Shown here one piece after another: positions 3,411 through 38,781 of a DNA stretch of 38,871 nt. The DNA is from Gammaproteobacteria bacterium (GTDB lineage Bacteria > Pseudomonadota > Gammaproteobacteria > Porifericomitales > Porifericomitaceae), in NCBI GenBank assembly GCA_028817255.1, contig JAPPQA010000026.1, forward strand, positions 1-38,871. The letters run 5' to 3'. A program made the translations under genes and the position numbers. Position 1 is the stretch's first letter; each line of letters opens with the position of its first letter. The notes under the pieces are model-generated. The model made no database searches. It was not told where the DNA came from and saw only the letters and a list, made by a program, of their open reading frames with translations.

Positions 3411-3475
3411 CTTGCTTTCCCTCTGTGGAACCATATGGTTTTCGGCGCCTTTGCCGCGCCTTCGCCATTAAAAGT

Positions 3476-3491: not shown

Positions 3492-3652
3492 GGGACGCAA
3501 TTCCCTTTGTGGGAAGGCGCCTCGCACGGGCGCCGCCCGCTTCGGAGGGCGAATATCCAGGGCTTGCCGCGACCCAATGCGTCGAATTGTGACGTGTTGC
3601 GTCGCTATTCTCGGCGGGCGCGGCCTTCCCGCAAGACGGCGCCCGCGCGTCG

Positions 3653-15470: not shown

Positions 15471-15609
15471 CGCCCCGGTCCGGTGGCGGGCGGGTTGGGC
15501 GCGGGGGGAATATGCCCGCGGCGGGCCGGCGTCCGTTGCTGGCATTTGCCGCGGTTTTGCGATAGATTATAGGGGACAGGTCTTTAGCAGCGATCCAGGG
15601 AGCTTTGAA

Positions 15610-17346: not shown

Positions 17347-17355
17347 ACCGGGGCG

Positions 17356-18555: not shown

Positions 18556-18630
18556 GCTTTCGTATCCCCGCCGCTGCCGATTTTCTCTTTTTTCGTTGCA
18601 AATCCCGGCGCCTGGGTCGGCGCTTGCGCC

Positions 18631-20941: not shown

Positions 20942-22156
20942 TCAGGCCAGGTATTCTGCGTTGATCCGGATGTACTCGCGGCTCAGGTCGCAGGTGCTTA
21001 TTTTGGCGGCCGTACGTCCGCGCCCGAGATGGATGACGAACCGCAGGTGCTTCTGGGCCATGAATTGCTTCGCCTTTGCCTCGTTGTAGCGCGGAGAAAG
21101 GCTGCCCTGTTCCACAACCGGGAGATCGCCGAGGAACAGGTTCACTTGTCCGATATCGAGCGCATTCAGGCCAGAGCGCCCCACCGCCGCCAGGATTCGC
21201 CCCCAGTTCGGGCTCCCTCCATGGCAGGCCGTTTTGAACAGCGGAGAGTGCGCGATCAGGTATGCCACCCGCAGGCATTCTTGTTCGTCGCGGCCGCCTT
21301 CTATGCGGATATCAATTATGCGCGTAGCGCCCTCGCCGTCCTCGACGATCGCTAACGCCAGGTGTTCGCAGGTTCGGGTAATGGCGGCCGCGATCCTTTC
21401 GCTGTTTCGGTCCCATCTCCGAATCTCCGGGCCGCCGCCGCGGGCGGTGGCAATCAGGACCGCGGCATCGTTGGTAGAGGTATCTCCGTCCACGGTAATG
21501 CGGTTGAAGGTCTTCCCGGCTGCCCGTTGCAGCATGTGCCCCAGCAGGTTTTTTTCTATGTGGGCGTCAGTAGCGATGAAGGCCAGCATAGTCGCCATGT
21601 CGGGGCATATCATCCCCGCGCCCTTGGCGATGCCGGTCACCGTGATCTCGGTGCCGCCCAGGGTCAGTTTTTCCGAGTATCCCTTGGGCGCCCGGTCGGT
21701 GGTCATGATTGACCGGGCCGCCTTTTTCCATCCTGCTTCCTCCAGGGATTGCAGGCAGGCCGGCAACGTTTTGCAGATTTGGGACACCGGAAGAGGCTCT
21801 CCGATTACCCCGGTGGAGAAGGGCAGTACGGCTTCTACGGGGCAACGACGGGCATGCGCCAGGGTTGCGCATACTTTCCGGCAGTTTTCGAGCCCCGCCT
21901 CTCCGGTGCCCGCATTCGCATTTCCGGCGTTGATCACACAGTAACGCGGCGATGCCAGCGCCAAGTGACGCCGCGCTATCGTTACCGGGGCCGCGGCGAA
22001 GGCATTGCGCGTGAATATGGCTTGCAACAAGGCGCCGTCCTCAATGGCGATTACCGTCAGGTCTGTCCTGTCCTGGCGCAAAGCCTGTGCGGAGGCCACC
22101 CCCAGGCGCACCCCCGCCACGGGGTGGAGCGGGAGAGCCGTGTCGGGTTCATCCAT
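20942..22156 (-). CDS. argJ: Bifunctional ornithine acetyltransferase / N-acetylglutamate synthase ArgJ
   Basis: 404 aa. Autoprocessing-site context PDMATMLAFIATDA. Ends with the INAEY motif. Confidence 0.92.
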   Translation of the reverse strand: MDEPDTALPLHPVAGVRLGVASAQALRQDRTDLTVIAIEDGALLQAIFTRNAFAAAPVTIARRHLALASPRYCVINAGNANAGTGEAGLENCRKVCATLAHARRCPVEAVLPFSTGVIGEPLPVSQICKTLPACLQSLEEAGWKKAARSIMTTDRAPKGYSEKLTLGGTEITVTGIAKGAGMICPDMATMLAFIATDAHIEKNLLGHMLQRAAGKTFNRITVDGDTSTNDAAVLIATARGGGPEIRRWDRNSERIAAAITRTCEHLALAIVEDGEGATRIIDIRIEGGRDEQECLRVAYLIAHSPLFKTACHGGSPNWGRILAAVGRSGLNALDIGQVNLFLGDLPVVEQGSLSPRYNEAKAKQFMAQKHLRFVIHLGRGRTAAKISTCDLSREYIRINAEYLA

Positions 22157-22165
22157 GCCGCGCGC

Positions 22166-24871: not shown

Positions 24872-24947
24872 GATGGCGACGCCCGCATGCCCATGCGGTT
24901 AAGGGAACGGAGGAAGGAAAAAGAGGGCAGGCTCCAGGGAGGGAGGC

Positions 24948-25913
24948 TTACTGCAGGGAAAGAATGTATTCCCTGGGATTTACCGGGACTCCGGCGCGCA
25001 GCACCTCAAAGTGCACATGCGCGCCAGTGGAGCGGCCGGTCGAACCCATGAGAGCGATCGGTTGGTGTTTTTTCACTAACTGTCCTGCCCTGACCAGGTT
25101 TTTCTGGTTGTGCGCGTATAGCGTCCTGTATTCGCCGTGCTCGATCTCCACCAGGTTTCCGTATCCCTGGTAGCGTCCGGATCGGGTCACAATCCCTGAT
25201 GCCAGCGCAATGACCGGAGATTTGTACTTGCCGGTGATATCGATCCCCGAGTGAAACTCGCGTCTTCCGGTGAAAGGGTCGGTCCTCATGCCGTATCTGG
25301 ATGAGATCCACCCGTTGGGCACGGGGCTTCCCGCGGGAGTGGAGCGGTCTTTGAGAGTTTTTCGCATCAGGAACGCTTCGATGGCGTCCAGCTTGTCTTC
25401 GCGGTCCTGGAGTCTCCGTTCCAGGCGGTTGAGAGCGGCCATCAGGTCTATGGCGCCGTCGCCGAAGGCGCGGGAGTATTGCTCCGCGCCCAGAGGTCCT
25501 CCCAGGCCCACCGGGGCATTCCAGTCGAACTCTCCCGGCTCAAGGGCGGCCATGTCGGAAAGTCTTGTGCCCAATGCTTCCAGGCGGAGCACCCTTCCCT
25601 GCAGGCGGCTTAGCGACACGCCTATCGCTTGCAATTGTCGCGTCGCTTTTTCCCTGGCCTCCACGACCGCCGCGCGCCCGCGGTGAATTTCGTCTCTCAG
25701 GACAAGGTCCATCCCTTCCTCGTGCAGGGATACGGAGGCCGCGGCATTTTGCTGCTCCTGGTTGACGTAGGACCGGACTCCCCATGAGAAACATGCGGTT
25801 GCCAATGCGGCCAGCAATGCGCCGAACACGGACAGGGAGAAGAGCATGCGCCCCCATCCCAGCGTGATCGTTTTGCCGCATTTTGCCGGGCCGGATAGAA
25901 TTACTAGCTGCAT
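24948..25913 (-). CDS. M23 family metallopeptidase (LytM-type)
   Basis: N-terminal membrane anchor, coiled-coil region, and an M23 domain with HSGIDI and STGRSTGAHVHFEV motifs. The start may instead be the internal MLFSLSV at 25847. Confidence 0.82.
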   Translation of the reverse strand: MQLVILSGPAKCGKTITLGWGRMLFSLSVFGALLAALATACFSWGVRSYVNQEQQNAAASVSLHEEGMDLVLRDEIHRGRAAVVEAREKATRQLQAIGVSLSRLQGRVLRLEALGTRLSDMAALEPGEFDWNAPVGLGGPLGAEQYSRAFGDGAIDLMAALNRLERRLQDREDKLDAIEAFLMRKTLKDRSTPAGSPVPNGWISSRYGMRTDPFTGRREFHSGIDITGKYKSPVIALASGIVTRSGRYQGYGNLVEIEHGEYRTLYAHNQKNLVRAGQLVKKHQPIALMGSTGRSTGAHVHFEVLRAGVPVNPREYILSLQ

Positions 25914-25941
25914 AACGTTCTTATTATACTACAATCGAAGC

Positions 25942-26418
25942 ATGAATGACGTTCCCGAGGCGCTCTCGCATTTCCTGTGCTCGGCCCCTTCCCCGGAGAT
26001 CCGGAAGACACGCCAGTGTCTGGAACGCTCGCGGGCCATACAGGCGGACCTGAAGCGGCTCTTGCCCGCATCCCTGGTGCCGCATTGCACTGCCGTCTCC
26101 TGGCCCGAACATAACACGCTGCTGCTTTCCGCGGATGCGCCCGCCTGGGCCCTGCGACTCAGGTTCCTGTTGCCTCGCATCATCCGGCATATGGCCGGCG
26201 TCGCTCTGTACGATGGCCTGCACGCGGTGCGGATACGGACGGCCCCCAAGAGGCCCCGCGTGTACGGCGCTTCGGCCTGCCGTCTCTCGCGGACACTCGG
26301 TATTGATGCATCCGTTGCCGGGCGCTTGCGCGCTTTGGCTTTCGAGGTTGCCGACCCCGCGTTGCAACGCTCCTTGGAACGATTGGCCGGTCGTCGCCCC
26401 GATTCGGGAGACATTTGA
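25942..26418 (+). CDS. DUF721 / DciA-like protein
   Basis: 158 aa from the ATG at 25942. LLPASLVPHCTAVSWPEHNTLLLSADAPAWALRLRFLLPRII matches my recollection of the DUF721 core (H-x...L-x-L...AWA-x-RLRF). Located between lpxC and the M23 peptidase/secA genes. Confidence 0.55.
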   Translation: MNDVPEALSHFLCSAPSPEIRKTRQCLERSRAIQADLKRLLPASLVPHCTAVSWPEHNTLLLSADAPAWALRLRFLLPRIIRHMAGVALYDGLHAVRIRTAPKRPRVYGASACRLSRTLGIDASVAGRLRALAFEVADPALQRSLERLAGRRPDSGDI

Positions 26419-26457
26419 AGATATGCCGGGCACGTCTCGTTTCGGTCCTTGCGCCGC

Positions 26458-27372
26458 TTAGGTGGCGATGATCGGTTGTTGTAGAAAGCGAAGAGGTACG
26501 TCCCTTTCGTCTTCGAAGGTAACCAATTCCCAGGCATCCCGGTCGGCGAGCAATAATTTGAGCAGCTCGTTGTTCAACGTGTGTCCCGACTTGTGCCCTC
26601 GAAAAGAACCGATGAGGCTGTACCCCAGGAGATACAGGTCTCCTATCGCATCCAGGATTTTGTGTTTGACGCATTCGTTCGCCGAGCGCAGGCCGTCCTC
26701 GTTGAGGACGCGGTACTCATCCACTACCACTGCGTTGTCCAGACTGCCCCCCTTCGCCAGGTTTTCTTCCCGAAGTTTTTCGACTTCGCGCAGGAAGCCG
26801 AAGGTCCGGGCGCGGCTGACCTCCTGCACGAACGAGGTCGCAGAGAAATCGAATTCGGCAAAGGAGTTGCTTTCGTTGAAAGTAGGATGATCGAACTCGA
26901 TCGAGAACCCCACCTTGAAGCCGTTGAACGGCTCAAACTGTACCGATTTGTCCCCGTCTCTCTCGACGATTTTCTTTTTGATCCTCATGAATTTTTTGGG
27001 TGCGGCTTGCTCCCGGACGCCTGCCGACTGAATCAGGAACACGAAGGGCCCGGCGCTGCCGTCCATGATGGGGACCTCGTCCGCGCTCAGGTCCACGTAG
27101 GCGTTGTCAATTCCGAGTCCGGCAAATGCAGCCATCAAGTGCTCTACCGTGGATACGCGCCCCCCATCTCGCGCCAGCGTCGTGGACAGGCGGGTATCGC
27201 CGATATTTTCGCAGCGGGCCGGGATCTCTCTCACCGGCTCCATATCCGTTCGCCGGAATACGATCCCGCAATCGGGAGGAGCGGGGCACAAGGTTAACAA
27301 GACCTTCGTGCCGTTATGGAGACCTACTCCGGTGGCCCGGATTACGTTTCTGAGTGTGCGTTGTTTTATCAT
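26458..27372 (-). CDS. lpxC: UDP-3-O-acyl-N-acetylglucosamine deacetylase
   Basis: [21 protein letters not shown] start; [23 protein letters not shown], and [13 protein letters not shown] motifs. Confidence 0.96.
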
Positions 27373-27617: not shown

Positions 27618-28913
27618 TCAAGGGATCGTCTGGTCAATCACCAAGTCCAGCGTCGCCCCCGAACCGGGGACGGCATCCGCGGGCCCGGCCTGCAAATCCC
27701 CGCTTTGCGGCCTGGCGTTTCCCGACTTCGAGACCCGCGCGCTTACCTGTACGCGGCGGAAACTGGAAAGGCGAGCGGTCGGCATCACCGAGGCGCTGTC
27801 GTCCAGGGTTACTTCCAGGGGCAGGTCGTCCACTCGCCGCCGCGTTGCCGCTACCGGCATGGGCGGCCCCTCCGGCGCCCGCGCGAATACGAATACGGTG
27901 TCGCCGGGGTCGGTAGCGGCAAGCAGGGAAGGAGCAATGGAGATTCGTACCTGAAGCGCTCCGGCATGAGCTTTGGCGGCGGCATCTGGAGAGGCGGCCC
28001 TGGTTGCCTGGGGCGCCGCGGGCGGCGCAATGGCCTCGGCAGGGGCCTCGGCAGGAGAATCCGCGGCCGGGGGTTCCCCGCCCGAGCGTTGTTCCACATG
28101 CGCGATCATGCGTTCCAGTCTGGCAAGCGCCTCGGGTTCGTTCCGTAAAAGCTCCGTGAGTTGTCGCCACCGATCCAACGCCAGGGGGAAATCCCCCGAT
28201 TCGAGCGCAACCAGCCCTGCCAGCCATAGCCCGTCCGCATTGCCCGGCTCCAGCGCCAGCGCCCGTTCTACCAGTTCCGCGGGGCGCCCGGTCAACTGGC
28301 CGTTATTCGCCATGCTGAGCGCGTTTGCGTACTGCAACAGGACTTCGGGGCGGTCTCCCCCCGTCAGGGAGTATGCTTGTTGCATTGCCGCCACGGCCTC
28401 GGAATAGCGTTCCAGGGTCATGTAGGAACGGGCCAGCAGCATCCAGTCGGCCAAGTCCCCCGGCTGTTGCGCAAGGCGCGCCGCCAAGGCCGCCACCATT
28501 TCTTCCACCGAAGGCAGCTCGCTTTTCGGGGCGGCGGCGTCCGGAACGGAGAAATCCGGGTTTCCCAGCTTGAAATACAGGCCAAACACCAATGCCGGCA
28601 ACAGACCCGCGAGACAGTAGGCCGACCACAGGAGGCGCGGCGGCCGTTTTTGCCGCTCCGGGCCCGCGGCGGCAGCGGCCTTGAGATCGCGCAGGAATTC
28701 CCGCTCAATCTCCAGGCGCATCGCGGAGAATTGCTCCTCGGCCAGCGTTCCCAGCCGCAGGTCGCGGTCCAGCGCGGAGATGCGGTCCTGGTAAATCGCG
28801 CGCAGGGCCCGCTCGCGGCTTCGTTCCTCCCCGCCCCGGCGGGGGCTCAACAGGCCGTAGAGCGCCGCCGCCAACACCGCCATCAGCAATATGCCGGCAT
28901 AGAACCAGAACAT
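27618..28913 (-). CDS. ccmI: Cytochrome c-type biogenesis protein CcmI (CycH)
   Basis: The ATG at 28913 gives MFWFYAGILLMAVLAAALYGL (TM1), a second TM segment, then periplasmic TPR repeats. Lies 2 nt after the ccmH stop. The track ORF start at 29255 overlaps ccmH. Confidence 0.8.
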   Translation of the reverse strand: MFWFYAGILLMAVLAAALYGLLSPRRGGEERSRERALRAIYQDRISALDRDLRLGTLAEEQFSAMRLEIEREFLRDLKAAAAAGPERQKRPPRLLWSAYCLAGLLPALVFGLYFKLGNPDFSVPDAAAPKSELPSVEEMVAALAARLAQQPGDLADWMLLARSYMTLERYSEAVAAMQQAYSLTGGDRPEVLLQYANALSMANNGQLTGRPAELVERALALEPGNADGLWLAGLVALESGDFPLALDRWRQLTELLRNEPEALARLERMIAHVEQRSGGEPPAADSPAEAPAEAIAPPAAPQATRAASPDAAAKAHAGALQVRISIAPSLLAATDPGDTVFVFARAPEGPPMPVAATRRRVDDLPLEVTLDDSASVMPTARLSSFRRVQVSARVSKSGNARPQSGDLQAGPADAVPGSGATLDLVIDQTIP

Positions 28914-28915
28914 TT

Positions 28916-29419
28916 CTAATCGGGGCTTTGCCCGCCGGAGTCGTCGCTCAGCAAGGTTTCCAGCCGGTTGCGTTCCTCGGGCGCCAATTCGGGTGCGGAC
29001 TGTGCCGCGCCGCGGTGCGCGGCGAAGCGCAAGACTGTCGCTAAGCCGCCCAGTAACAGGAGAAACGGGGCGAACCAGAGGAAATAGGTGGAGATTTTCA
29101 AGGGGGGGCGGTACAGGACAAAGTCCCCGTAGCGCTGCACCAAGTAATCGGCAACCTGCCGGTCGGTATAGCCCTCCTGCAACAGGCGATATACCTCGTC
29201 GCGCATGTCCTGGGCGAGGTCCGCGCCGGAATCGGACAGCGATTGGTTCTGGCACACCAGGCAGCGCAGTTCCTTGAGCAGGGTCTGGTAGCGCTGTTCC
29301 CGCTCGGGATCCTCGAAGGTGCGGGGCAGATCCGCGGCAGGAGACGCGGAGGAGAATGCGAGCGCCAACAGCAGGAGCCGTCCCGCGCGTCCCGCGAAGC
29401 GGGCGGCGCTAAGCCGCAT
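28916..29419 (-). CDS. ccmH: Cytochrome c-type biogenesis protein CcmH
   Basis: Signal peptide, LRCLVCQNQSLSDS redox motif, and a C-terminal TM segment. Confidence 0.88.
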   Translation of the reverse strand: MRLSAARFAGRAGRLLLLALAFSSASPAADLPRTFEDPEREQRYQTLLKELRCLVCQNQSLSDSGADLAQDMRDEVYRLLQEGYTDRQVADYLVQRYGDFVLYRPPLKISTYFLWFAPFLLLLGGLATVLRFAAHRGAAQSAPELAPEERNRLETLLSDDSGGQSPD

Positions 29420-29473
29420 TGTTCGGCAGGCCGCCGGCAATGCGAGCGGATTCGCGTAGCGAACGAAGCCGCT

Positions 29474-31438
29474 TCAAGCTTGCGTTCCGGTGGCCAGGGG
29501 CAAGCCCTGCGGCAGGTTGCGCCGTCGCCAGGCTGTCCGGTACCGGGGATCGGAGAGCGCCAGCGTTCCCCCCAGGCCCATCACCAGCGCCCCAAGCCAG
29601 ATCCAACGCACCAGCGGCTTGTAGTGCAGGCGAACGCTCCAGGCCCCGTTCCCGAGCGGTTCCCCCAGCGAGACGTAGAGATCGCGCAACAGCCCGCCGT
29701 CTATCCCCGCTTCGGTCATCACCGCGTCGCGCACCGAATAATTGCGCTTTTGCGAATGCAGCACGACCAACGTCCGCCCTTGGCGGGCAACGTGAAACTC
29801 CGCTTCCGTGGCGCGGTAATTGGGGCCGGGGACGCTCCGTAGCGCAGCCAGTCGGAATTCGTAACCGGCCAGCATCGCGCTGTCCCCGACCGCCATGCGC
29901 TTATGCGCCTCGTCGCTATGCAGGCTGCTTACCAGGATGCCGCACATGGTGACCGCCAGCCCCATATGGGCCAGGCACATTCCGTAGAAGCCGCTGGACA
30001 GGTTCTGGCGACCGGCGGCAAGCCGCAGCCGCAACGTTTGCAGCGTGCCAAGCGCGATCCAGGCCGCCATGCCCGCTCCGCAGGCTGTCGGCAGGACCCG
30101 GTCCTCCGTCAGCAGCGCCGCGCAGGCGACGCCTACCAGCACGCTTCCCCACAGCGCGGCGCGCAGGCGGGGCCACAAGGCGGAGGCCGCATCCGCGCGC
30201 CAGCGCACCAGCGGGCCCATGCCGACCAGCACGATCACCGGCGCCATCAGCGGCACGAATACGGCGTTGAAATACGGAGGACCTACGGACAGCTTGCCCA
30301 TGCCCAGCACTTCCGCCGCCAGCGGGTAGAGGGTGCCAAGCAGGATTGTCGCCGTGCTGACCGTCAGAGTGACCGCGTTGACCAGCAGGAAGGTCTCGCG
30401 GGACATGGGCCGGAACTTTGGCCCGGCCGGCGAATTCGGCGCCCGCCAGGCGAACAGCGCCAACGCGCCGCCCACAAAAACGGCGAGTAATCCCAGGATA
30501 AACACCCCCCGCTCCGGATCGGTGGCAAAGGCATGCACCGAGGTTAGCACCCCGGACCGCACCAGAAAGGTCCCCAGCAGGCTCAGGGCGAAGGCGCAGA
30601 TCGCCAGCAGCGCCGACCAGTTCCGGTAAACCCCTCGCTTGTCGGTGGCGGCCAGCGAATGGATCAGGGCTGTGCCGACCAGCCAAGGCATAAAGGATGC
30701 GTTTTCCACCGGGTCCCAGAACCACCAGCCTCCCCAGCCGAGTTCGTAGTAGGCCCACCAACTGCCCAGGGCGATCCCCAGCGTCAGGAACACCCAGGCG
30801 GCTATTGCCCAGGGGCGCGCCCAGCGCGCCCAGCCGAGGTCCAGACGTCCCTCCAGCAGCGCGGTGGCGGCAAAGGCAAAGGCCACGGCAAACCCTACAT
30901 AGCCCATGTAGAGCATGGGCGGGTGGAAGATCAGGCCCGGATCCTGTAACAGCGGGTTGAGGTCCGCTCCGTCCGGCGGGGCAGGGAAATGCCTTTCGAA
31001 CGGATTGGAGGTCAGGAGCATGAACAACAGGAATCCGACGCTGATAATGCCCAATATGCCGAGCAGGCGCGCGGCGAAGGCGTCCGGCAGGCTTCGGCTG
31101 AACATCGCTACCGCCAGCGTCCACAGGCCCAGCACCAGCGACCAGAGCAACAGGGAGCCCTCGTGCGCTCCCCAAACCGCCGAGACGCGGTAGCCCAGCG
31201 GCAGGGCGGAATTCGAATTCTGCGCCACGTAGAGCACGGAGAAGTCGTGGTTGACGAATGCCTGCGTCAAGGCGCCGAAGGCCAGCGCCAGGCAGACAAA
31301 CTGGATCGTTGCCATCGGCCGGGCCACGGCCATCCACGGCGCGACGCCGTACGCCGCGCCCATGAGCGGCAGGATTGCCTGGATCAGCGACGCGCCCAGC
31401 GCCAGCGCCAGGCAGAACAGCCCCAGCTCGACGATCAT
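29474..31438 (-). CDS. ccmF: Cytochrome c heme lyase subunit CcmF
   Basis: 654 aa, polytopic. Trp-rich motif WAYYELGWGGWWFWDPVEN. ATGA overlap with ccmE. Confidence 0.95.
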   Translation of the reverse strand: MIVELGLFCLALALGASLIQAILPLMGAAYGVAPWMAVARPMATIQFVCLALAFGALTQAFVNHDFSVLYVAQNSNSALPLGYRVSAVWGAHEGSLLLWSLVLGLWTLAVAMFSRSLPDAFAARLLGILGIISVGFLLFMLLTSNPFERHFPAPPDGADLNPLLQDPGLIFHPPMLYMGYVGFAVAFAFAATALLEGRLDLGWARWARPWAIAAWVFLTLGIALGSWWAYYELGWGGWWFWDPVENASFMPWLVGTALIHSLAATDKRGVYRNWSALLAICAFALSLLGTFLVRSGVLTSVHAFATDPERGVFILGLLAVFVGGALALFAWRAPNSPAGPKFRPMSRETFLLVNAVTLTVSTATILLGTLYPLAAEVLGMGKLSVGPPYFNAVFVPLMAPVIVLVGMGPLVRWRADAASALWPRLRAALWGSVLVGVACAALLTEDRVLPTACGAGMAAWIALGTLQTLRLRLAAGRQNLSSGFYGMCLAHMGLAVTMCGILVSSLHSDEAHKRMAVGDSAMLAGYEFRLAALRSVPGPNYRATEAEFHVARQGRTLVVLHSQKRNYSVRDAVMTEAGIDGGLLRDLYVSLGEPLGNGAWSVRLHYKPLVRWIWLGALVMGLGGTLALSDPRYRTAWRRRNLPQGLPLATGTQA

Positions 31439-31869
31439 GGAGGTTTGGCAGTGGATATGCCCAGCGCTTCGGCCACCTCTGGCGGCATATAATTTTCGTC
31501 GTGCTTGGCCAACACTTGGGATGCCTGGAACACGCCGTCTTCGCGCAGGCGCCCGTTGGCAATGATTCCCTGTTCCTCACGGAACAGGTCGGGCAGTACG
31601 CCTTCGTAGAGCACCACGATTTCCCGCTTCAGGTCCGTTACCGTAAAGCGTACGACAAGGCTGTCCTGGTCGCGCCGCACGCTGTCCTTTACCACCAGGC
31701 CGCCGACGCGGAAGTCTCTCCCGGAGGGCGCCTCTCCGGCCGCCACCTCCTGGGGCGTGTAGAAATACAGCAAATTTTCCTGAAAGGCCATGAGGATAAG
31801 CGCCGTACCCGCGGCAGTTGCGGCGAGGATCCCGCACACCATCCACTTCCGCCGGGTGCGCAAGTTCAT
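31435..31869 (-). CDS. ccmE: Heme chaperone CcmE
   Basis: The ATG at 31869 gives MNLRTRRKWMVCGILAA (membrane anchor). OB-fold region and heme-binding HDENYMPPEV motif. Confidence 0.9.
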   Translation of the reverse strand: MNLRTRRKWMVCGILAATAAGTALILMAFQENLLYFYTPQEVAAGEAPSGRDFRVGGLVVKDSVRRDQDSLVVRFTVTDLKREIVVLYEGVLPDLFREEQGIIANGRLREDGVFQASQVLAKHDENYMPPEVAEALGISTAKPP

Positions 31870-32024
31870 GGATTTTTCCGGTTTCGCAGGAGGCGCAATG
31901 CCCGCCTCTCGCGCCAGGCGGGCACCAGCGCATTTAACAGCAGCACCGCCGCTGTCACTCCGTAAGATGCCCATACGTAGGAGGCGTAGCCTCCCATGGC
32001 AAGAAAATCACGCACAGTTGTCAT
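31866..32024 (-). CDS. ccmD: Heme exporter protein CcmD
   Basis: 52 aa, MTTVRDFLAMGGYASYVWASYGVTAAVLLLNALVPAWRERR, typical CcmD. 4-nt overlaps with both ccmC and ccmE. Confidence 0.78.
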   Translation of the reverse strand: MTTVRDFLAMGGYASYVWASYGVTAAVLLLNALVPAWRERRALRLLRNRKNP

Positions 32025-32773
32025 CCCTGTGGCCCGGTTTCCCCCAGCGCCGCCTTGCGCACCCAGGCATGATTGCGTTCCCGGGTCAGGATGTCGCAAC
32101 GCGCCCGGATCAGCAGGGCATACGCATAGTAGCACATGAAGCCCGCCGCCATGCACAGCAGCGGCGTCAGCATGCTGGCATGGATGGCGGGCGCGGCGAG
32201 ACGGCTTACCGAGGCTCCCTGGTGCAGAGTATTCCACCATACCACCGAATAGTGAATGATCGGGATATTTACGATCCCCACCAAGCTTAGCACCGCCCCG
32301 GCGCGGGCCGCTGCCCTGCGGTCTTCGATTGCCGACTGCAACGCCATGTAGCCCAGGTAGAGGAACAGAAGGATCAACTCCGAACTCAGGCGCGCGTCCC
32401 ATACCCACCAGGCGCCCCAGGTCGGTTTGCCCCAGATCGATCCGGTGACCAGCGCCAGGAAAGTGAAAGCCGCGCCCAGCGGCGCGCTGTTGCTCGCCAC
32501 CACCTCCGCCAGCTTCAGTTTCCATATCAGCAACACTGCCCCGGCAGTGGCCATGACCATGTAAACGAATAGCGACATCCAGGCGCTGGGGACATGCACG
32601 TAGATAATGCGGAAGACGTCTCCCTGCAAATAATCCGGCGGCGCGAGCACCAGGCCCCCATACGCGCCGGCCGCCAACAGCAGCGCGCAGGCAAGTCCGA
32701 GCCATGCGCTTAATCGTCGGGAGAGAAAATAAAAATCCCGTAGCGACGCGTATTTGTAAAACCGTTGGAACAT
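32021..32773 (-). CDS. ccmC: Heme exporter protein CcmC
   Basis: The ATG at 32773 gives MFQRFYKYASLRDFY. RIIYVHVPSAW and the Trp-rich WGKPTWGAWWVWDARL motif are present. Confidence 0.92.
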   Translation of the reverse strand: MFQRFYKYASLRDFYFLSRRLSAWLGLACALLLAAGAYGGLVLAPPDYLQGDVFRIIYVHVPSAWMSLFVYMVMATAGAVLLIWKLKLAEVVASNSAPLGAAFTFLALVTGSIWGKPTWGAWWVWDARLSSELILLFLYLGYMALQSAIEDRRAAARAGAVLSLVGIVNIPIIHYSVVWWNTLHQGASVSRLAAPAIHASMLTPLLCMAAGFMCYYAYALLIRARCDILTRERNHAWVRKAALGETGPQG

Positions 32774-33474
32774 CAGCCGATCCGTACCCGCAGGGAAAGG
32801 GCGGCAGCCGGGGGCGCCAGTGCCAGGGCGAGGAGCAGCATGCCCCCCAGGAAATAGAATTCGGCAGTCGGCGCGCGGCCAGCCGCGGCATTTTGCACGG
32901 CTACGGTGGAGACGATCAACACCGGCACGTACAAAGGCAGGAGTAGCAGGGCGGGAAGGGCGCTGCCCTGCCGCAGGCCGACGACCAGGGCCATGGCCAC
33001 CGCGCCGACCAGGCAGAGCGTCGGCGTGCCTATGATCAAGGTAAGCAACAGGGGCGCCAGAGCCGCGGCCGGCAGGCGCAGCAGTATCCCCAGCAGGGCC
33101 GCGGCCAGGAGCAGCGGGAGCCCGCTCAGTATCCAGTGCGATACGACCCGGGTCGCCAACAATACGCTCAGCGGATGGGGCGAGAGCAACCACTGGTCCA
33201 GCGTGCCGTCCTCGAAATCGGGACGAAACAGTCCATCCAGCGACAGGCAGACCGCGAGCAGGGCAGCCACCCAGACGATGCCCGGCGCCGCCTGCCGCAA
33301 TAGGGCGCTCTCCGGTCCCAGGGCCAGCGGAAACAGGGCGCCCACCGCAACGAAGAATATCAGGGGGACGGCCGCTTCCGCGCGGCGGCGGGATGTCAGC
33401 AGGAATTCTCTAGTCAGCACTTCGAGACAGGCGCGGCCCAGCGAGGCGGCGGATGCGCCTGCCAAGGGCGCCAT
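32773..33474 (-). CDS. ccmB: Heme exporter permease CcmB
   Basis: 233 aa from the ATG at 33474 (alternative ATG at 33534). PLIFFVAVGALFPLALGPE, FEDGTLDQWLLSP. Six TM segments. Confidence 0.85.
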   Translation of the reverse strand: MAPLAGASAASLGRACLEVLTREFLLTSRRRAEAAVPLIFFVAVGALFPLALGPESALLRQAAPGIVWVAALLAVCLSLDGLFRPDFEDGTLDQWLLSPHPLSVLLATRVVSHWILSGLPLLLAAALLGILLRLPAAALAPLLLTLIIGTPTLCLVGAVAMALVVGLRQGSALPALLLLPLYVPVLIVSTVAVQNAAAGRAPTAEFYFLGGMLLLALALAPPAAALSLRVRIG

Positions 33475-33612
33475 GTTTGCGGGCGCCCGGGCCTGCAAAG
33501 GCGCCCGTTCCCGGGGTTCCTCGCCGCGCGTCATTGTTCTGCCGCGAGCCGGTTCGCCGCGCCCGGGTCGCCGCATGGATTTTCCGCAACGGCGCCCCAT
33601 TCGGGCAGAGGC

Positions 33613-33640
33613 TTGACAACCGGGAAACGGTCCATATAGC
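33613..33640 (+). promoter_or_regulatory. Candidate sigma70 promoter for the multiheme cytochrome module
   Basis: TTGACA (33613-33618), 16-nt spacer, TATAGC (33635-33640). It sits in the only AT-rich patch of the ccmB/cytochrome divergent region. A TACAAT also occurs at 33652-33657. Confidence 0.35.
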
Positions 33641-33700
33641 ATTTCATGAACTACAATGATAAACGATAAAGCCCTGGGCATACGATAGAGATGCCGAACA

Positions 33701-33723
33701 GCATATCGTGGGGCACGATATGC
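33701..33723. promoter_or_regulatory. Perfect 10-bp inverted repeat (candidate operator or leader hairpin)
   Basis: GCATATCGTG-ggg-CACGATATGC, with no mismatches. It lies about 60 nt downstream of the candidate -10. A related half-site, GCATACGATAG, occurs at about 33679. Confidence 0.4.
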
Positions 33724-33779
33724 GAAGCGTCGGTAGCGTATCTCCAGAGGTTCTATCGGTAAGTAGTGGAGGGCGCGCA

Positions 33780-36395
33780 ATGACAGGCGACAGCTGTATT
33801 GCGTTGCGAAATCGTTCTTGGTTGGGGCGCTTTGCGCGGGGCGGCGCATTCGCATTCGGGAGAATTCCGCGGGCGTCGCGCGCGTGGGTGGTGGCCTGCC
33901 TTTCGCTTGCAACCCGGTGGGCCGGGTTGCGGTTGCCGGTTCCGTTGCGGTTGTCGGTTCCCGTTCGGCGGCGCCGGAACCCGCGGGCCTTGCTGTTGGG
34001 TTCCCATAAACGCCGGGGTCATTCCTGCCTTTTGCCCTGTCTTTTGCTGTTGCCGTTGCCGCTCTTTGCCGATGCGGCTCTGGCGGCGCCGGAAACCGCG
34101 CCGTCGCAAGGGGGATGTGTCAGCTGCCACCAGGGCATTGAGCCGTTCTCGGATTTGCAGGGCCCCATGATGGCCGCCATCATGGCCATCGGCAGGGCCA
34201 ACCAGGACCCCCAGGGATGCGTGGTTTGCCATGGCGGGAATCCTGTTGCCGCGACCAAGGAAGAGGCGCACTCCGGGGCGCCTGTGGCGCTGAAAGAGGG
34301 CATAGGGCCACAGATGTTCTATCCGGATCCGGGCAGCGTATGGATTGCGGACCGCACCTGCGGGCAGTGTCATGTCGGTTATGCCGAACGCTTGACTAAA
34401 TCCCTGATGAACACCGAAGCCGGAAAATTGCAGGGTAATTTATGGTCTTGGGGCATGCTGGACGATCACAAAGTGATCTGGGGCAACTACGCCATCAAGG
34501 ACGAGGACGGCCCTGTTCCCAAGGTGGGCACGGATGCCTACAAGGAATACATGACGGCATACGTAAAATCGCACCCCGATCAAATGCCGAGCGAAATGAA
34601 GCAAGTGCCGGATGTCGATCTGAAGACGCTTGCCCAGCACCCGAATCAGGCCGGGTTTACGTACTCGCGCCAGCAATGCCAGCGTTGTCATGTGGGCGTA
34701 ACGGGACGCGAGAAACGGGGCGACTACCGCGGCACGGGATGTTCGGCCTGTCATGTTCCCTATAGCAACGAGGGTTTCTACGAAGGGGGCGATCCGACCA
34801 TCAGCAAGAAACAGCCCGGCAAGTTGCTGGTGCATCGGATGCAGGCGACCCGCAAGACCAAGGTCACGGTCGGCGATACTACCTACTCCGGCATCCCTTC
34901 GGAAACTTGCAATACCTGCCATAATCGCGGCAAACGGATCGGAGTGAGCTACCAGGGGATTATGGAGTTTCCTTACGGCAGTCCCTACAACGAACAGGGG
35001 GGCAAGCAGCCGCCGTTGCATACCAAGCAATATCTGTTCATTAAAGATGATCTGCATCATCAGATAGAAAGCCGGGAAGGCAACCCGAAGGGCGGTTTGC
35101 TGTGCCAGGATTGCCATACCACGATCGACATGCACGGCGACGGGAATTTGTTTGGGACTACCCTGGCCCAGGTTGAGATCGAATGTTCCGACTGTCATGG
35201 CACTCCCGATCGAGCCCCCTGGGAATTGCCGATCGGTTATGGCGAGGAGTTTCAGCAGCCCGTGTCGGCCAAGGCGCGCGGGTTGGCCGACAAGTTGACG
35301 CCTCATATGGCTATGGCGACAATCTACGATCCGGAAGATGGCTACCTTTTGACCGCGCGCGGCAATCCTTTCGGCAATGTGGTCAAGCGGGGCGAAAAGG
35401 TCGTCTTGCACTCGGCCTCCGGGCTGGATTTCGAGGTTCCCGTGCTTAAATCCATCAAGGAGCATGACTCGTGGAATTCCATTAATGGCAAGGTGGCGAT
35501 GTCGCGGGTTTCCAAGCATATGGATAGCCTGGAGTGTTACGCCTGTCATGCGGACTGGGCGCCGCAATGCTATGGCTGCCACATCACTGTGGATTATTCC
35601 AAGGGGAAAACCGATATAGACTGGATCAGGAATGCCAACTCGCGGCGGCCCAACGGTTTGACCGTGGACAACGATTTGGGCACCAATGGGCTTCCGGGGC
35701 CCGGAAAGGTATCCGAGACTCGTTCCTACCTGCGGTGGGAGACTCCTGTGCTGGGAATCAACGGCGAGGGCCGCGTTAGCCCCATGATGCCGGGATGCCA
35801 GGTGGTTACCACCGTGATCGATGCGCAAGGGAAGACGGTAGTTTGGAATAAATCCTGGGAAACGCCCAAGGGCAAGGGGATGGATTATGCCGCGGTCCAG
35901 CCGCATACGGCGGGGCGCAAGGCCCGCACTTGCGAAAGCTGTCACAATAATCCGAAAACCCTGGGCTACGGGATCGAGGATGGCCGCTTCCTGAAGGGGT
36001 ACGACAAAGGCTTTGTCGTAGATCTGGTGACGGCGGACGGGAAAGTGATCCCGCGGCAGTACCAGCAGCAGTCGTCTCCCGTGCCCGGCCTGGATCATGA
36101 TGTTTCCCAAATTGTTACCCGGGATGGGAAGCAGTTGGTCAGCGTCGGTTCGCACTGGCCTCTGACCGGGCCGTTGCCGGCCAAGATGCGGGAAAAGATA
36201 GAGCGCACCGGTCTTTGCATGGGCTGTCACCAGGAGATGACCAACGAAGAAATCTGGCCCAAGGTTAACTCCGAAGGTTGGGTGGATAACGAGGAGCACC
36301 GGCAGGTGATGAACCGCGCATTGCACGAGTACGCAAAGTCCGCTCCTCTGGAGCGCGCGGATGAAGACAAGGGCGAAGACAAGGACAATGAATAG
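33780..36395 (+). CDS. Secreted dodecaheme c-type cytochrome (12 CXXCH), family unassigned
   Basis: Twelve CXXCH motifs. First Cys at residues 137, 171, 218, 324, 345, 401, 466, 492, 610, 621, 742 and 837 of the ORF numbered from 33708. Sec-type signal: KRRGHSCLLPCLLLLPLPLFADAALA|APE. The start is uncertain. The ATG at 33780 has a GGAGG RBS but leaves about 70 aa before the signal peptide. TTG/CTG codons at 33945-33996 give a normal signal peptide. Confidence 0.85.
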   Translation: MTGDSCIALRNRSWLGRFARGGAFAFGRIPRASRAWVVACLSLATRWAGLRLPVPLRLSVPVRRRRNPRALLLGSHKRRGHSCLLPCLLLLPLPLFADAALAAPETAPSQGGCVSCHQGIEPFSDLQGPMMAAIMAIGRANQDPQGCVVCHGGNPVAATKEEAHSGAPVALKEGIGPQMFYPDPGSVWIADRTCGQCHVGYAERLTKSLMNTEAGKLQGNLWSWGMLDDHKVIWGNYAIKDEDGPVPKVGTDAYKEYMTAYVKSHPDQMPSEMKQVPDVDLKTLAQHPNQAGFTYSRQQCQRCHVGVTGREKRGDYRGTGCSACHVPYSNEGFYEGGDPTISKKQPGKLLVHRMQATRKTKVTVGDTTYSGIPSETCNTCHNRGKRIGVSYQGIMEFPYGSPYNEQGGKQPPLHTKQYLFIKDDLHHQIESREGNPKGGLLCQDCHTTIDMHGDGNLFGTTLAQVEIECSDCHGTPDRAPWELPIGYGEEFQQPVSAKARGLADKLTPHMAMATIYDPEDGYLLTARGNPFGNVVKRGEKVVLHSASGLDFEVPVLKSIKEHDSWNSINGKVAMSRVSKHMDSLECYACHADWAPQCYGCHITVDYSKGKTDIDWIRNANSRRPNGLTVDNDLGTNGLPGPGKVSETRSYLRWETPVLGINGEGRVSPMMPGCQVVTTVIDAQGKTVVWNKSWETPKGKGMDYAAVQPHTAGRKARTCESCHNNPKTLGYGIEDGRFLKGYDKGFVVDLVTADGKVIPRQYQQQSSPVPGLDHDVSQIVTRDGKQLVSVGSHWPLTGPLPAKMREKIERTGLCMGCHQEMTNEEIWPKVNSEGWVDNEEHRQVMNRALHEYAKSAPLERADEDKGEDKDNE

Positions 36396-36792
36396 AAATC
36401 GCGGAGCGAAGGCCGTTTTCGGTTTCGCGGGTCTGTTGTTATGCCTGCTCGGGAGTTCTGCCCGGATATGGGCGCAGGAGGACACGGGAGAGGTTTCCGA
36501 TTACACCGTGAGGCAGCTCCTTGCGCCGTGCACTGAGGGCGATAACGATTCCCGGTGGGGGGCCGTGGCCGAATCCGAGTGCGAACAATACATCAAGGGC
36601 TTTACCGATGCCCTGCTCATTTTCTCTGCCGACAGCGACGGTATTTGTTTGCCCGAGGCGGGGAACCGGCCGGATGAAATTCGCTGGGCCTTCATGAAGT
36701 GGGCCCACCGCCATTTTTCGGAGATCGACGAGTTATCCGCTGCCGAGGGCGTGCAAGCTACGTTGCAGGCATCTTTCGCCTGCGATAAGTAA
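36388..36792 (+). CDS. Small secreted four-cysteine protein (possibly Rap1a/Tai4-like fold), function unknown
   Basis: The ATG at 36388 lies inside AATGAATAG and so overlaps the cytochrome stop codon (translational coupling). Signal peptide MNRNRGAKAVFGFAGLLLCLLGSSARIWA|QED. The mature protein is about 105 aa with 4 Cys, including CEQYIKGFTDA and ICLPE. Confidence 0.65.
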   Translation: MNRNRGAKAVFGFAGLLLCLLGSSARIWAQEDTGEVSDYTVRQLLAPCTEGDNDSRWGAVAESECEQYIKGFTDALLIFSADSDGICLPEAGNRPDEIRWAFMKWAHRHFSEIDELSAAEGVQATLQASFACDK

Positions 36793-36835
36793 GTAAATTT
36801 CGTTTTGCGGCCTTTGTTGAGGTTCTTCACGCCTT

Positions 36836-37993
36836 ATGCGATTCATGACTGCCCCGATGCTCGCTGTTGCGACATTAACCGCAACCTTTTCTCCGGCGCA
36901 GCATACGTGGGCGGAAGAACCGGACCCCCAACTCCGGGTATCCGGAGATTTGCGGTTCCGCGCGGAATGGGATTGGGATTCGCGGCGCGCGAACGGCGCC
37001 AAGCGGGATGACCGGGGGCGCGCCAGAATTCGTGCCCGGATCGCTGTTCGGATCGACCCCAACGATCAGTTCGAATTTTTGACGCGATTTCGCACGGGTT
37101 CTCGCGCCAGCCAGCAATCGCCTCATGTCACGGTGGCCGATTTCAGCGGCAACCCTACCGGCACGCAGGAAGTCGTAATTGACAAGTGGTATGTGAAGGC
37201 AAAAGGCAAGGTGGCGGAGGCCAGGGCCTGGCTTTGGGGGGGGCGCAACAGCCTGCCATTTTGGAAGCAAAACGAACTGTTGTGGGACGATGACGTTACC
37301 CCGGCCGGCGTGGCAGGGGGCGCCGAGTTCGATTTGAGAGCGGGAAAGTTGGCGGTTGCGGCGGGTTACCTGTTGTTGCCGGACGGCATAGATCATTTTC
37401 ACGGCAACGGGGTGCCGGTCCAGTTCGCCTATTCCGGGGGCCTCGAGGAGCTGCAATGGCATATGGCCGCTGGCGTTTTGCTTATAGACGGCGAGCCCGG
37501 CGCGCGTAATCTTCGCATGGGGAACGGCGCGCGAGACTACACGATCTGGAATGGTTCCCTGCAGGTCGTACGGAAGTTTCTAGGCGTTCCGGCTATTTTT
37601 GGCGCGGACGTATATAGCAACAGCGAAGGTTATTCCGCCGGGGAAATCGCGCGGGATTTTTCCGCGGCATCCGGAGTGGGCAAGGACGACACCGATGGCT
37701 TTGTGCTTTCGCTGCGGGTGAAGAACCTGGGCAACGAGGGGCAATGGCAGTTGGGATACTATTATGCGGATATCGAAGCCCTTGCGGTTCACGCATCCTA
37801 CGCGCAGGACGATTGGATGCGCTGGGGTTCGAGTTCGCAAACGGATGCCAGCGATTTCAAGGGGCATGAATTCCGGGTCGGCTGGTCGCCGATGAAAAAT
37901 TGGCAATTGCTGGCCCGGTTATACACCGTCGAGGCGCAAAACAGCCCGCAGGACGGAAACCGCTTCCGCTTCGATATCAACTGGAAATTTTGA
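36836..37993 (+). CDS. Outer-membrane beta-barrel protein (putative porin)
   Basis: Signal peptide (MRFMTAPMLAVATLTATFSPAQHTWA|EE). Alternating amphipathic beta-strand pattern throughout (LRFRAEWDWDS, RARIRARIAVRID, WQLGYYYADIE). C-terminal OMP signature RFRFDINWKF with terminal Phe. No CXXCH motifs. Confidence 0.75.
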   Translation: MRFMTAPMLAVATLTATFSPAQHTWAEEPDPQLRVSGDLRFRAEWDWDSRRANGAKRDDRGRARIRARIAVRIDPNDQFEFLTRFRTGSRASQQSPHVTVADFSGNPTGTQEVVIDKWYVKAKGKVAEARAWLWGGRNSLPFWKQNELLWDDDVTPAGVAGGAEFDLRAGKLAVAAGYLLLPDGIDHFHGNGVPVQFAYSGGLEELQWHMAAGVLLIDGEPGARNLRMGNGARDYTIWNGSLQVVRKFLGVPAIFGADVYSNSEGYSAGEIARDFSAASGVGKDDTDGFVLSLRVKNLGNEGQWQLGYYYADIEALAVHASYAQDDWMRWGSSSQTDASDFKGHEFRVGWSPMKNWQLLARLYTVEAQNSPQDGNRFRFDINWKF

Positions 37994-38370
37994 CCCGCGG
38001 CGTTCCCTCTGGCCGGCGTTTCCCCATGCCCGGGGGTCCGCCGTTGCCCTGCGCCTTCCCATTCCGATGAACCGGCCGGTGGCGGCGTATTCCTGCGCGG
38101 GGCGTGTTCCTGCGCGGACTGGGGCGGCCCCCGAACCGCCTGCGTGTAGGCCCGTGTAGGCTAATGAAGGGCTGCGTACAGGTCGTGCGCGGGACCGCGC
38201 ATATGAGACAAAATCGCCGCCTCTGCCAGGCGGGCGTGAATCGGCCTGCGTTTGGGGCGCATTTCCGAATTCGGCGTTTTTCTTCCTAAATGCTTGTATT
38301 GTCAGTGATTTCTCTCTTTTTTCGTCGTCCGCGCGCGATATTCGGGCTGGGCGGGCCTCCGCTTTTGCGG

Positions 38371-38399
38371 TTGACAATTCCCCCGGAGCCAGGAAAAAT
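38371..38399 (+). promoter_or_regulatory. Candidate promoter of the tRNA-tuf operon
   Basis: TTGACA (38371-38376), 17-nt spacer, AAAAAT (38394-38399), followed by a GC-rich discriminator-like stretch. tRNA-Tyr begins 18 nt downstream. Confidence 0.4.
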
Positions 38400-38416: not shown

Positions 38417-38501
38417 GGAGGGGTACCCAAGCGGCCAACGGGGGCAGACTGTAAATCTGCTGGCTTTGTCCTTCGTAGGTTCGAATCCTACCCCCTCCAC
38501 C
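38417..38501 (+). tRNA. tRNA-Tyr (anticodon GTA)
   Basis: Hand-folded cloverleaf. Acceptor GGAGGGG/CCCCTCC, anticodon arm GCAGA-CTGTAAA-TCTGC, long variable arm, T-arm GTAGG-TTCGAAT-CCTAC. Confidence 0.9.
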
Positions 38502-38554
38502 GTCGGAGAGGCGCGTATTTTTTAAGACTCGGACGAGTGTTCTTGCCGAGGCAT

Positions 38555-38625
38555 GCGGGTGTAGTTCAATGGCAGAACCTCAGCCTTCCAAGCTGAAGAT
38601 GTGGGTTCGATCCCCATCGCCCGCT
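38555..38625 (+). tRNA. tRNA-Gly (anticodon TCC)
   Basis: Acceptor GCGGGTG/CGCCCGC (one G-U pair), anticodon loop CTTCCAA, T-loop TTCGATC. 71 nt; CCA is not encoded. Confidence 0.9.
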
Positions 38626-38705
38626 CGAGGGGCCCGCTTGAGCAGCGGCCGCAACGGTTGGCGGAGCGCTGGAGAGCGGGATGTGGGACGAAGCAGGTAT
38701 AGCAT

Positions 38706-38781
<76 letters not shown>

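Follow-up and report, generated by a model that had tools for sequence, protein, structure and literature searches.

A dodecahaem cytochrome c on a gammaproteobacterial contig belongs to a distinct, expanded clade of the ExtM superfamily

Multihaem cytochromes carry much of the anaerobic cycling of nitrogen, sulfur and metals, and only a few of their families have known reactions or structures. The DNA analysed here, referred to as the window, is a 38,871-nt stretch of contig JAPPQA010000026.1 (assembly GCA_028817255.1) from a Gammaproteobacteria bacterium. It contains an uninterrupted + strand open reading frame (ORF), 33708..36395, that encodes a dodecahaem c-type cytochrome; the gene itself probably occupies 33990..36395, with its stop codon at 36393-36395. 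A gene for a small secreted protein of the Rap1a fold (36361..36792, +) overlaps the cytochrome stop, a gene for a beta-barrel protein of the outer membrane (36836..37993, +) follows, and a cytochrome c maturation (ccm) operon lies divergently on the other side (27618..33576, - strand). By sequence comparison the cytochrome belongs, within the ExtM superfamily, to a clade that is distinct and expanded, and is not an ExtM orthologue or a member of the MtrC/OmcA, NrfA, HAO, OTR or MccA families. The clade is large, very strongly conserved and undescribed in the literature that we found, and is new as a well-defined variant of an ordinary kind of molecule, the multihaem cytochrome c.

A regular-expression count of the translation returned exactly 12 CXXCH motifs, the number given in the initial annotation of this DNA, with first nucleotides at 34116, 34218, 34359, 34677, 34740, 34908, 35103, 35184, 35535, 35568, 35931 and 36216. 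Neither CXXCK nor CX3CH, CX4CH or CX15CH occurs in the ORF, and CXnCH appears only as overlaps of canonical motifs, which agrees with the earlier report that such variants are absent. Of 25 cysteines 3' of the signal peptide, 24 fall within the 12 motifs, far beyond chance. The motifs are separated by long gaps of 101 aa (haems 3-4), 112 aa (haems 8-9), 116 aa (haems 10-11) and 90 aa (haems 11-12), matching the lengths first estimated for the haem-free stretches, and the closely spaced pair that had been pointed out (CYACHADWAPQCYGCH) occurs here and does not vary within the close clade. Haems 1-3 (CVSCH, CVVCH and CGQCH; 34116..34373, +) form an N-terminal trihaem module resembling cytochrome c7, in which residues 39-128 of the 801-aa form match Pfam PF14522 (Cytochrome_C7) at 47.8 bits, above its cut-off of 24.8. 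Haems 4-8 (CQRCH, CSACH, CNTCH, CQDCH and CSDCH; 34677..35198, +) constitute the most conserved haem core and resemble MtrC domain II/IV (Pfam PF22113, MtrC-MtrF_II-IV_dom; 45.8 bits, residues 226-405). The close pair is made up of haems 9 and 10 (CYACH-X6-CYGCH; 35535..35582, +) and lies, according to the AlphaFold 2 secondary structure, within a beta-rich domain, while the C-terminal part (35931..36230, +) comprises haem 11 (CESCH, 35931-35945), haem 12 (CMGCH, 36216-36230) and the conserved stretch between them.

The whole chain is under very strong purifying selection. Among 40 divergent relatives, haems 1-9 and 11 are retained in 38-40, with the core motifs of haems 4-8 present in 39-40 (column identity 0.85-0.93), haem 9 in all 40 and haem 11 in 39; haem 12 is kept in 30, and haem 10 in only 27. 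The haem-free segments match the haem core in conservation, with column identities of 0.76-0.88. A first AlphaFold prediction from 48 close homologues was unusable, with a mean predicted local distance difference test score (pLDDT) of 40.6, and was replaced by one built from a diverse alignment of 60 sequences at 28-78% identity, which reached a pLDDT of 91.3 and a predicted template modelling score (pTM) of 0.89. This model consists of helical haem-binding regions and a beta-rich domain at about residues 428-611 (numbered from nucleotide 34062), the latter housing haems 9 and 10 together with the only cysteine of the mature protein outside a haem motif. The initial annotation had taken the haem-free stretches for large inserts; in view of their conservation, their presence in shorter form in ExtM and their order in the model, they are better described as ordered conserved domains that are predicted to be partly beta-rich. 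A Foldseek search with the pLDDT-91 model against the Protein Data Bank (PDB) returned nothing at E <= 0.001, a weak negative, as loop-rich cytochromes are hard for the 3Di alphabet.

Automatic gene callers place the start of the gene on identical public contigs at ATG 33780, which yields a protein of 871 aa, and the same start had been adopted in the initial annotation. This choice is probably wrong, and we favour TTG 33990 because of the lengths and N-termini of homologues and the GC content at second codon positions (GC2) of the intervening segment. Specifically, more than 100 homologues are 770-790 aa long and have 26-52 residues between Met1 and the first haem motif, and the Arg-rich extension of 70 residues encoded by 33780-33989 is found in no homologue. 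The codon-position GC of this extension is non-coding in character, its GC2 of 0.69 being atypical against 0.34-0.52 across the gene body. Translation from TTG 33990 would give an 801-aa precursor with some 772 mature residues, so that the earlier figure of about 770 mature residues stands. Such a start leaves a divergent intergenic region of about 410 nt, with a sigma-70-like site at 33613-33642; an Rfam scan of the leader found no riboswitch or other RNA. Imperfect short tandem repeats (GGTTGC x5.7 and an 18-nt unit x2) lie at 33925-33961, just 5' of the probable start, and 12- and 16-nt duplications occur at 34024-34081 in the region coding for the signal peptide. Slippage may lie behind these repeats and duplications and have given rise to the odd Leu/Pro-rich signal peptide.

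The predicted signal peptide (33990..34076, +), read from the sequence and by comparison with homologues, is of the Sec type with a signal peptidase I site, MLLGSHKRRGHSCLLPCLLLLPLPLFADA/ALAAPE, and has an n-region HKRRGH, a hydrophobic core LLPCLLLLPLPLF and cleavage at ADA/A; those of homologues are 20-30 aa long and likewise end at AxA-like sites. Ahead of the first haem there is no canonical lipobox ([LVI][ASTVI][GAS]C): GHSC and LLPC, the two candidates, both fail at the residues -1/-2/-3, and a lipobox-like sequence occurs in only four of 119 close homologues, all of which accords with the earlier statement that the protein lacks one. At the other end of the chain, the acidic, Lys-rich tail ERADEDKGEDKDNE (36351..36392, +) that had been remarked upon as unusual is indeed present, but it is not a feature of the family: its column identity is about 0.3, it has no conserved counterpart in the alignments, and it is modelled at a pLDDT of 52-61. 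The C-terminal tail measures 54 aa here against a family median of 41 aa, a difference of about 13 aa, and the acidic stretch is a lineage-specific extension that is probably disordered.

A word-indexed protein search returned more than 3,100 relatives, of which the best 120 are 69-79% identical and bear uninformative names such as 'cytochrome C' or 'hypothetical'. When representatives at 50% identity were searched exhaustively, 1,339 matched at E <= 1e-3 and 235 at E <= 1e-30; a one-genome-per-species collection contains 473 stretches that encode a relative. The 69-79% identity spans both Alpha- and Gammaproteobacteria of marine and sediment origin, the former including Roseibium, Aliiruegeria, Tropicimonas, Shimia, Rhodospirillales and Kiloniellales and the latter Acidiferrobacter, Woeseia, Chromatiales, Competibacteraceae and Thiotrichales, among them Beggiatoa-like bacteria. 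The hosts number hundreds of species, of kinds that typically live in coastal and deep sediments, and include Rhodobacterales, Rhodospirillales, Woeseia, Acidiferrobacter and Beggiatoa-like Thiotrichales. No description of the clade was found in the literature, including work on dodecahaem cytochromes, on Rap1a together with multihaem proteins, on the host genera, on dedicated lyases and on the Uet system of Tenderia.

The best NCBIfam match of the protein is to ExtM (NF040943), at 237.3 bits against an equivalog cut-off of 800 bits and over profile positions 128-510 of 599 only. The window protein is collinear with a representative that is a true ExtM (P0230; 826 bits, above the same cut-off) and to which it is 28% identical (E = 2e-67), and all 12 motif columns and the lone cysteine are common to the two. 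By this comparison the true relatives of the protein are the ExtM-type dodecahaem cytochromes. ExtM of Geobacter sulfurreducens (GSU2935), encoded in the extHIJKLMNOPQS cluster, likewise has twelve CXXCH motifs, which agree in order and register, and the same lone cysteine, is also exported by Sec without being a lipoprotein, and contains the same haem-poor segments in shorter form. However, the window protein is about 170 aa longer and falls far short of the ExtM cut-off, and its locus, unlike the ext clusters, has no genes for a Rieske protein or cytochrome b, for the ExtKL selenoprotein, for a rhodanese or for TusA/DsrE, its neighbours being the ccm genes, the Rap1a-like gene and the Porin_5 gene. 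ExtM is itself known only by name and context; its cluster in Geobacter includes a protein resembling rhodanese and a cytochrome with selenocysteine that has been implicated in the reduction of selenite and tellurite (PMC5877670).

Resemblances to better-known families are slight by comparison. The initial annotation had likened the protein to cell-surface cytochromes of the MtrC/OmcA type, but this likeness is confined to the single PF22113 match: the OmcA/MtrC model TIGR03507 has a cut-off of 209 bits, and the protein reaches 28.3 in a match of about 90 residues. A second suggested likeness, to catalytic octahaem enzymes, found no support in the searches, since no Pfam or NCBIfam match to the NrfA, HAO, ONR, OTR or MccA/SirA families was obtained at E <= 0.01. 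Confident homology to a characterised enzyme was likewise not found: a phmmer sequence search of the PDB gave 0 matches, and a profile search gave only haem-motif-level matches to NrfA, ActA and MccA (E = 1e-6 to 1e-2) that cover about 80 residues of a generic H..G..C.DCH motif.

The sole non-haem cysteine of the mature protein lies in the sequence MPGCQV (codon 35796..35798, +) and is Cys579 when numbered from 34062, or Cys697 of the 895-aa ORF; it is a candidate distal ligand or partner of haem 10. It is invariant across the close clade. In 81 representatives of the superfamily, 47 have both the cysteine and the haem-10 motif, 22 have neither and the discordant classes number six each, an association that is strong by a Fisher test made without regard to phylogeny (p = 2e-9); several of the 12 discordant sequences are fragments with visible damage. 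In sequences that have lost haem 10, aromatics (YYGY/FFGF) take the place of its motif, and I, F, Y, L or H that of the cysteine. The same alignment has His/Met exchanges at columns H358 and M116, which are a signature of axial ligands, and ligand columns are therefore readable in it. Because the cysteine and the haem-10 motif are lost together, the covariation suggests a contact of Cys579 with haem 10, in the simplest case as the sixth ligand, which would make this a His/Cys-ligated haem. Haems of that kind are known chiefly from TsdA, SoxAX and DsrJ of sulfur metabolism, to which the likeness is the one conserved cysteine that appears tied to one haem; these proteins have no detectable sequence similarity to the window protein and contain two or three haems as against its twelve.

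For the genomic context, 80 loci were fetched from the 473 stretches and supplemented with loci on metagenomic contigs, and targeted tblastn was carried out over 84 loci. The most constant neighbour is the Rap1a-like gene, which stands immediately 3' of the cytochrome gene in 79 of the 84. In the window it encodes a protein of 143 aa with four conserved cysteines that matches Pfam PF18602 at 47.3 bits (cut-off 27.7), and the family consensus, C.EaDNDaR.G..aE.ECEQY...ClP...DEvRWAf..W...F.C, is strongly conserved and acidic. No such gene was seen near divergent relatives of the cytochrome or near ExtM, which sets the present clade apart from the ExtM loci. We regard the Rap1a-like protein as a candidate partner or small subunit of the cytochrome. 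It shares the Rap1a/Tai4 fold family but probably not the immunity role, which we doubt because no type VI secretion system or effector gene was seen near it and because it is fixed beside the cytochrome in so many loci. One homologue (P0125, 46% identical; L086:8001-12811) is translationally coupled to an MMPL/RND-type membrane protein and not to a Rap1a-like gene. The beta-barrel protein, encoded 44 nt beyond the Rap1a-like gene, is 385 aa long, ends in ...NWKF and has a partial match to Porin_5 (Pfam PF16930, 48.1 bits); a porin adjoins the module in only five of the 84 loci, namely the window and four others, and is accessory, not core.

The second association is with cytochrome c maturation. 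The window operon (27618..33576, -), identified by Pfam and by gene calls on the identical contig, has the System I order ccmB-C-D-E-F-H-I; it lacks ccmA before ccmB and ccmG between ccmF and ccmH, so that these two genes must be located elsewhere or the operon is a partial second set. Linkage extends to ccmF in 47, ccmI in 47 and ccmH in 43 of the 84 loci, and takes four forms. Rhodobacterales, Roseibium, Hyphomicrobiales and others have a divergent fnr-ccmF-ccmH-ccmI operon; in some Rhodospirillales (L021, L040, L044, L057 and L083) an fnr-cytochrome-Rap1a-like module is set between ccmC and ccmE; in a Thiotrichales metagenome-assembled genome the module lies 5' of ccmBCEFHI; and the window has its divergent ccmB-I operon. 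The fnr-headed ccmF-ccmH-ccmI operon was seen at L003 (e.g. L003:3266-7781), at L025-L032 and at about 35 other loci. The linked ccmF, ccmH and ccmI products score on the NrfE, NrfF and NrfG models. In Rhodobacterales, ccmF without an adjoining ccmE is not in itself evidence of paralogy.

The third association is with oxygen-linked regulation. A gene for a Crp/FNR-family regulator, usually divergent and upstream, is present in 54 of the 84 loci; the N-terminus of these regulators holds a Cys cluster, their recognition helix reads ETvSR, and they give their top scores on the FixK and FnrL models. Of 82 loci, 31 have perfect TTGA-N6-TCAA boxes 5' of the cytochrome; the background frequency of such boxes is 0.018 per 500 nt.

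Beyond the Rap1a-like, FNR and ccm genes, clustering of all neighbours guided by GC content at third codon positions found nothing conserved, the next ten clusters having unrelated functions by Pfam (LysR, SDR, EamA and MCP among them). No conserved membrane partner, fixed redox partner or linked quinol dehydrogenase was found among the neighbours, no second multihaem gene was found in the module by the window gene calls or the clustering, and Rieske or cytochrome b genes were absent from all 84 close loci. A gene for a c550-like monohaem cytochrome adjoins in seven of the 84. Type II secretion system (T2SS) genes are not conserved among the loci; on one alphaproteobacterial chromosome (L005:11350-17372) genes of the PilN, T2SS-M and secretin types come after the module, which here has a c550-like gene, a neighbourhood that is unconserved and probably coincidental. 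On another contig (L087:4097-14697) a homologue with 12 haems and 59% identity, P0122, lies 5' of haem-copper oxidase subunit I and a set resembling alternative complex III (ACIII), made up of a multihaem ActA-like protein, an Fe-S ActB-like protein and NrfD; this contig also carries an intein-containing RtcB. The true ExtM orthologue P0230 is clustered (L088:1266-5631) with TusA, DsrE-like, ExtN-like and Rieske proteins and has a TauE-family exporter near, which links ExtM-type cytochromes to sulfur-relay proteins. A tblastn search of PLSDB plasmids gave no match, so that nothing points to carriage of the module on plasmids, and neither the cytochrome nor the Rap1a-like protein nor the porin had a PADLOC match.

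The traits that define the clade are an expanded ExtM-type fold without a solved relative, an obligatory Rap1a-fold partner, the association with FNR and ccm genes and, probably, a thiolate-linked haem. The reading that we favour, tentatively and with rather less than even confidence, is a periplasmic multihaem oxidoreductase induced at low oxygen that possibly acts on sulfur or selenium species. According to this proposal, a soluble dodecahaem cytochrome c would be exported by Sec to the periplasm, where it would work with the disulfide-bonded Rap1a-fold protein encoded directly 3'. An FNR-type oxygen sensor would switch the module on in most lineages, such that the protein would be active under low oxygen. 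Eleven of the haems may serve as a wire to the periplasmic pool of c-type cytochromes, a connection to soluble carriers that is suggested by the lack of a linked quinol dehydrogenase and by the adjacent c550 gene in some loci. Haem 10, in the beta-rich and haem-poor domain, would be ligated by the free cysteine of MPGCQV or react through it as a His/Cys-type reactive centre, and a small inorganic substrate might be reduced or oxidised there. Sulfur or selenium species seem the most plausible substrates because of the ExtM orthologue beside TusA, DsrE-like and TauE genes, the composition of the Geobacter ExtM cluster, the precedents for His/Cys haems and the many sulfur oxidisers among the hosts; the substrate class is nevertheless the weakest step of the proposal. 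Of its elements, the haem count, the export signal, the family, the synteny, the FNR association and the covariation of the cysteine with haem 10 are established by the analysis, whereas the ligation by the cysteine, catalysis and the class of substrate are inferred.

Several lines of evidence speak for this reading. Conservation this strong, haem-free segments included, characterises enzymes and tightly docked proteins more often than the fast-evolving surface cytochromes, and the cross-class identity of about 70%, the oxygen-sensing regulator and the maturation genes together mark a specific, selected low-oxygen function in a protein that is currently annotated as 'cytochrome C' or 'hypothetical'. 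Dedicated haem-lyase genes beside catalytic cytochromes have precedents in NrfEFG with NrfA and SirEFG with SirA (PMC6976685). Other observations weigh against this interpretation. The close clade has 12 invariant non-motif histidines, enough for twelve bis-His haems, and an open or unusual haem site is therefore not required; the test that ties the cysteine to haem 10 ignores phylogeny, as stated above. All motifs are canonical CXXCH, so that no special lyase is obviously needed, and maturation genes also adjoin non-catalytic cytochromes of extracellular electron transfer (EET), as in the uet cluster. The close clade has no linked gene for sulfur relay, for a molybdoenzyme or for anything else that would indicate a substrate, and the window locus has neither an FNR gene nor, even at one mismatch, an upstream FNR box. 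No experimental work on the family was found in the literature. A fuller version of the proposal sees in the clade a respiratory enzyme, so far unrecognised, of Alpha- and Gammaproteobacteria from marine sediment, with a His/Cys haem 10 as active site, a linked CcmFHI-type lyase, a Rap1a-fold subunit, FNR induction and an unassigned anaerobic redox step on sulfur, selenium or another small molecule; taken as a whole, we consider it doubtful. The cultured hosts (Roseibium aggregatum, Aliiruegeria, Tropicimonas and Shimia) make the function directly testable, and the result would also inform on ExtM of Geobacter and of cable bacteria.

The main competing interpretation, which we judge somewhat unlikely, is a non-catalytic periplasmic hub or store of electrons, a twelve-haem wire or capacitor that under oxygen limitation would shuttle or buffer electrons between the bc1/cytochrome-c pool and other periplasmic reductases or oxidases, with the Rap1a-like protein as a docking or stabilising subunit. 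The twelve canonical motifs with their twelve invariant distal-His candidates would suit such a role, as would the combination of a c7-like N-terminus with a core like the MtrC pentahaem domain, both of which are electron-transfer modules. Moreover, ExtM is regarded as an electron carrier within the ext cluster, the homologue P0122 adjoins an ACIII-like complex and a haem-copper oxidase, and maturation genes elsewhere sit beside cytochromes that purely transfer electrons. Nevertheless, an identity of about 70% across classes that takes in haem-free domains of 100 aa is unusually high for a mere wire, the invariant free cysteine coupled to one haem is left unexplained, and no fixed redox partner is encoded nearby. 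The dodecahaem 'nanowire' cytochromes of the GSU1996 type, which are also periplasmic, share the number of haems and, through haems 1-3, a match to the c7 model; however, the window protein has one c7-like module (residues 39-128) and no 4 x 3 repeat, and at 772 aa against about 320 aa it includes large ordered non-haem domains.

An alternative enzymatic role, that of a catalytic multihaem enzyme of the nitrogen cycle acting on nitrite, NO or hydroxylamine in the manner of NrfA, ONR or HAO, would take the FNR/Dnr-type control as a sign of denitrifying conditions. FNR-family regulators and boxes are present, the hosts include many denitrifiers and nitrate-storing Beggiatoa-like bacteria, the profile search gave weak matches to NrfA haem motifs (E about 1e-6), and the linkage to NrfEFG-like ccmFHI genes recalls NrfA. 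Indeed, the NrfA/NrfEFG and SirA (MccA-type)/SirEFG systems are likewise periplasmic and multihaem, under anaerobic control and linked to ccmF/ccmH/ccmI-type genes, but the window protein differs from NrfA and SirA in having no CXXCK or CX15CH and no membership of either by sequence or fold. No Pfam or NCBIfam match to NrfA, HAO or ONR was obtained, the PDB matches amount to about 80 residues of generic motif, the loci show no linkage to nir, nor, nos or nap genes, and the linked regulator has the Cys cluster of FNR-type oxygen sensors, unlike the Dnr/NnrR type. We accordingly regard a nitrogen-cycle function as improbable.

Still less probable is a cytochrome of the outer surface or the outer membrane, that is, a porin-cytochrome conduit for EET formed with the downstream porin. 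Such an arrangement is brought to mind by the beta-barrel gene 44 nt 3' of the Rap1a-like gene (in the window and four other loci), by the match to an MtrC-like pentahaem domain and by a haem density like that of MtrC/OmcA, a point made in the initial annotation. The outer-surface deca- and undecahaem proteins MtrC, OmcA and UndA do share with the window protein a similar haem density, a domain matched by haems 4-8 and an interleaving of haem and beta-rich domains. However, the window protein has 12 haems, is not a lipoprotein, has no MtrAB partner, scores 28 bits against 209 on TIGR03507 and is far more conserved than MtrC-type proteins; the four-domain fold of MtrC/OmcA/UndA/MtrF (two pentahaem and two beta-barrel domains) was unmatched by Foldseek, which is weak on loop-rich cytochromes, and only one PF22113 match was found. 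The absence of a lipobox, of an MtrA-like periplasmic partner and of a conserved linked T2SS tells in the same direction, as does the restriction of the porin to five of 84 loci. Moreover, the barrels of known porin-cytochrome conduits (MtrAB, PioAB, OmbB-OmaB-OmcB and Uet) have at least 20 strands and about 650-700 aa, and at 385 aa the window barrel is far below the 26-28 strands of the MtrB/UetC conduits and so cannot sheath a 770-aa cytochrome. Finally, that the long ORF is an artefact, whether a fusion of two genes or an error of sequencing or assembly, as the initial annotation had allowed, is effectively refuted by the identical protein on three independent contigs, by the 115 of 119 close homologues that are collinear with 12 motifs at 770-790 aa and by the whole-chain pTM of 0.89, only the start codon being in question, where the annotated N-terminus from ATG 33780 is unconserved and non-coding in look.

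The remainder of the window consists of housekeeping genes. Type IV pilus genes occur in two groups, at 2922-6648 (pilin and a PilS-type kinase) and at 15448-19434 (PilB, PilC and PilD), and are interspersed with the housekeeping genes sucCD, nadE, bamD, rluD, clpB, argJ, secA and lpxC, a layout consistent with a gammaproteobacterial chromosome and not with an island. GC content varies from about 0.58 to 0.72 along the window (15001-19000, 21001-27000 and 33001-38000). The cytochrome-porin region has a GC of 0.58, no lower than the pilBCD and secA regions, and composition therefore does not mark it as recently acquired. At the right end, a cluster of tRNA-Tyr(GTA), tRNA-Gly(TCC) and tRNA-Thr(GGT) genes occupies 38417-38781 and is preceded by a promoter-like site at 38371-38399.

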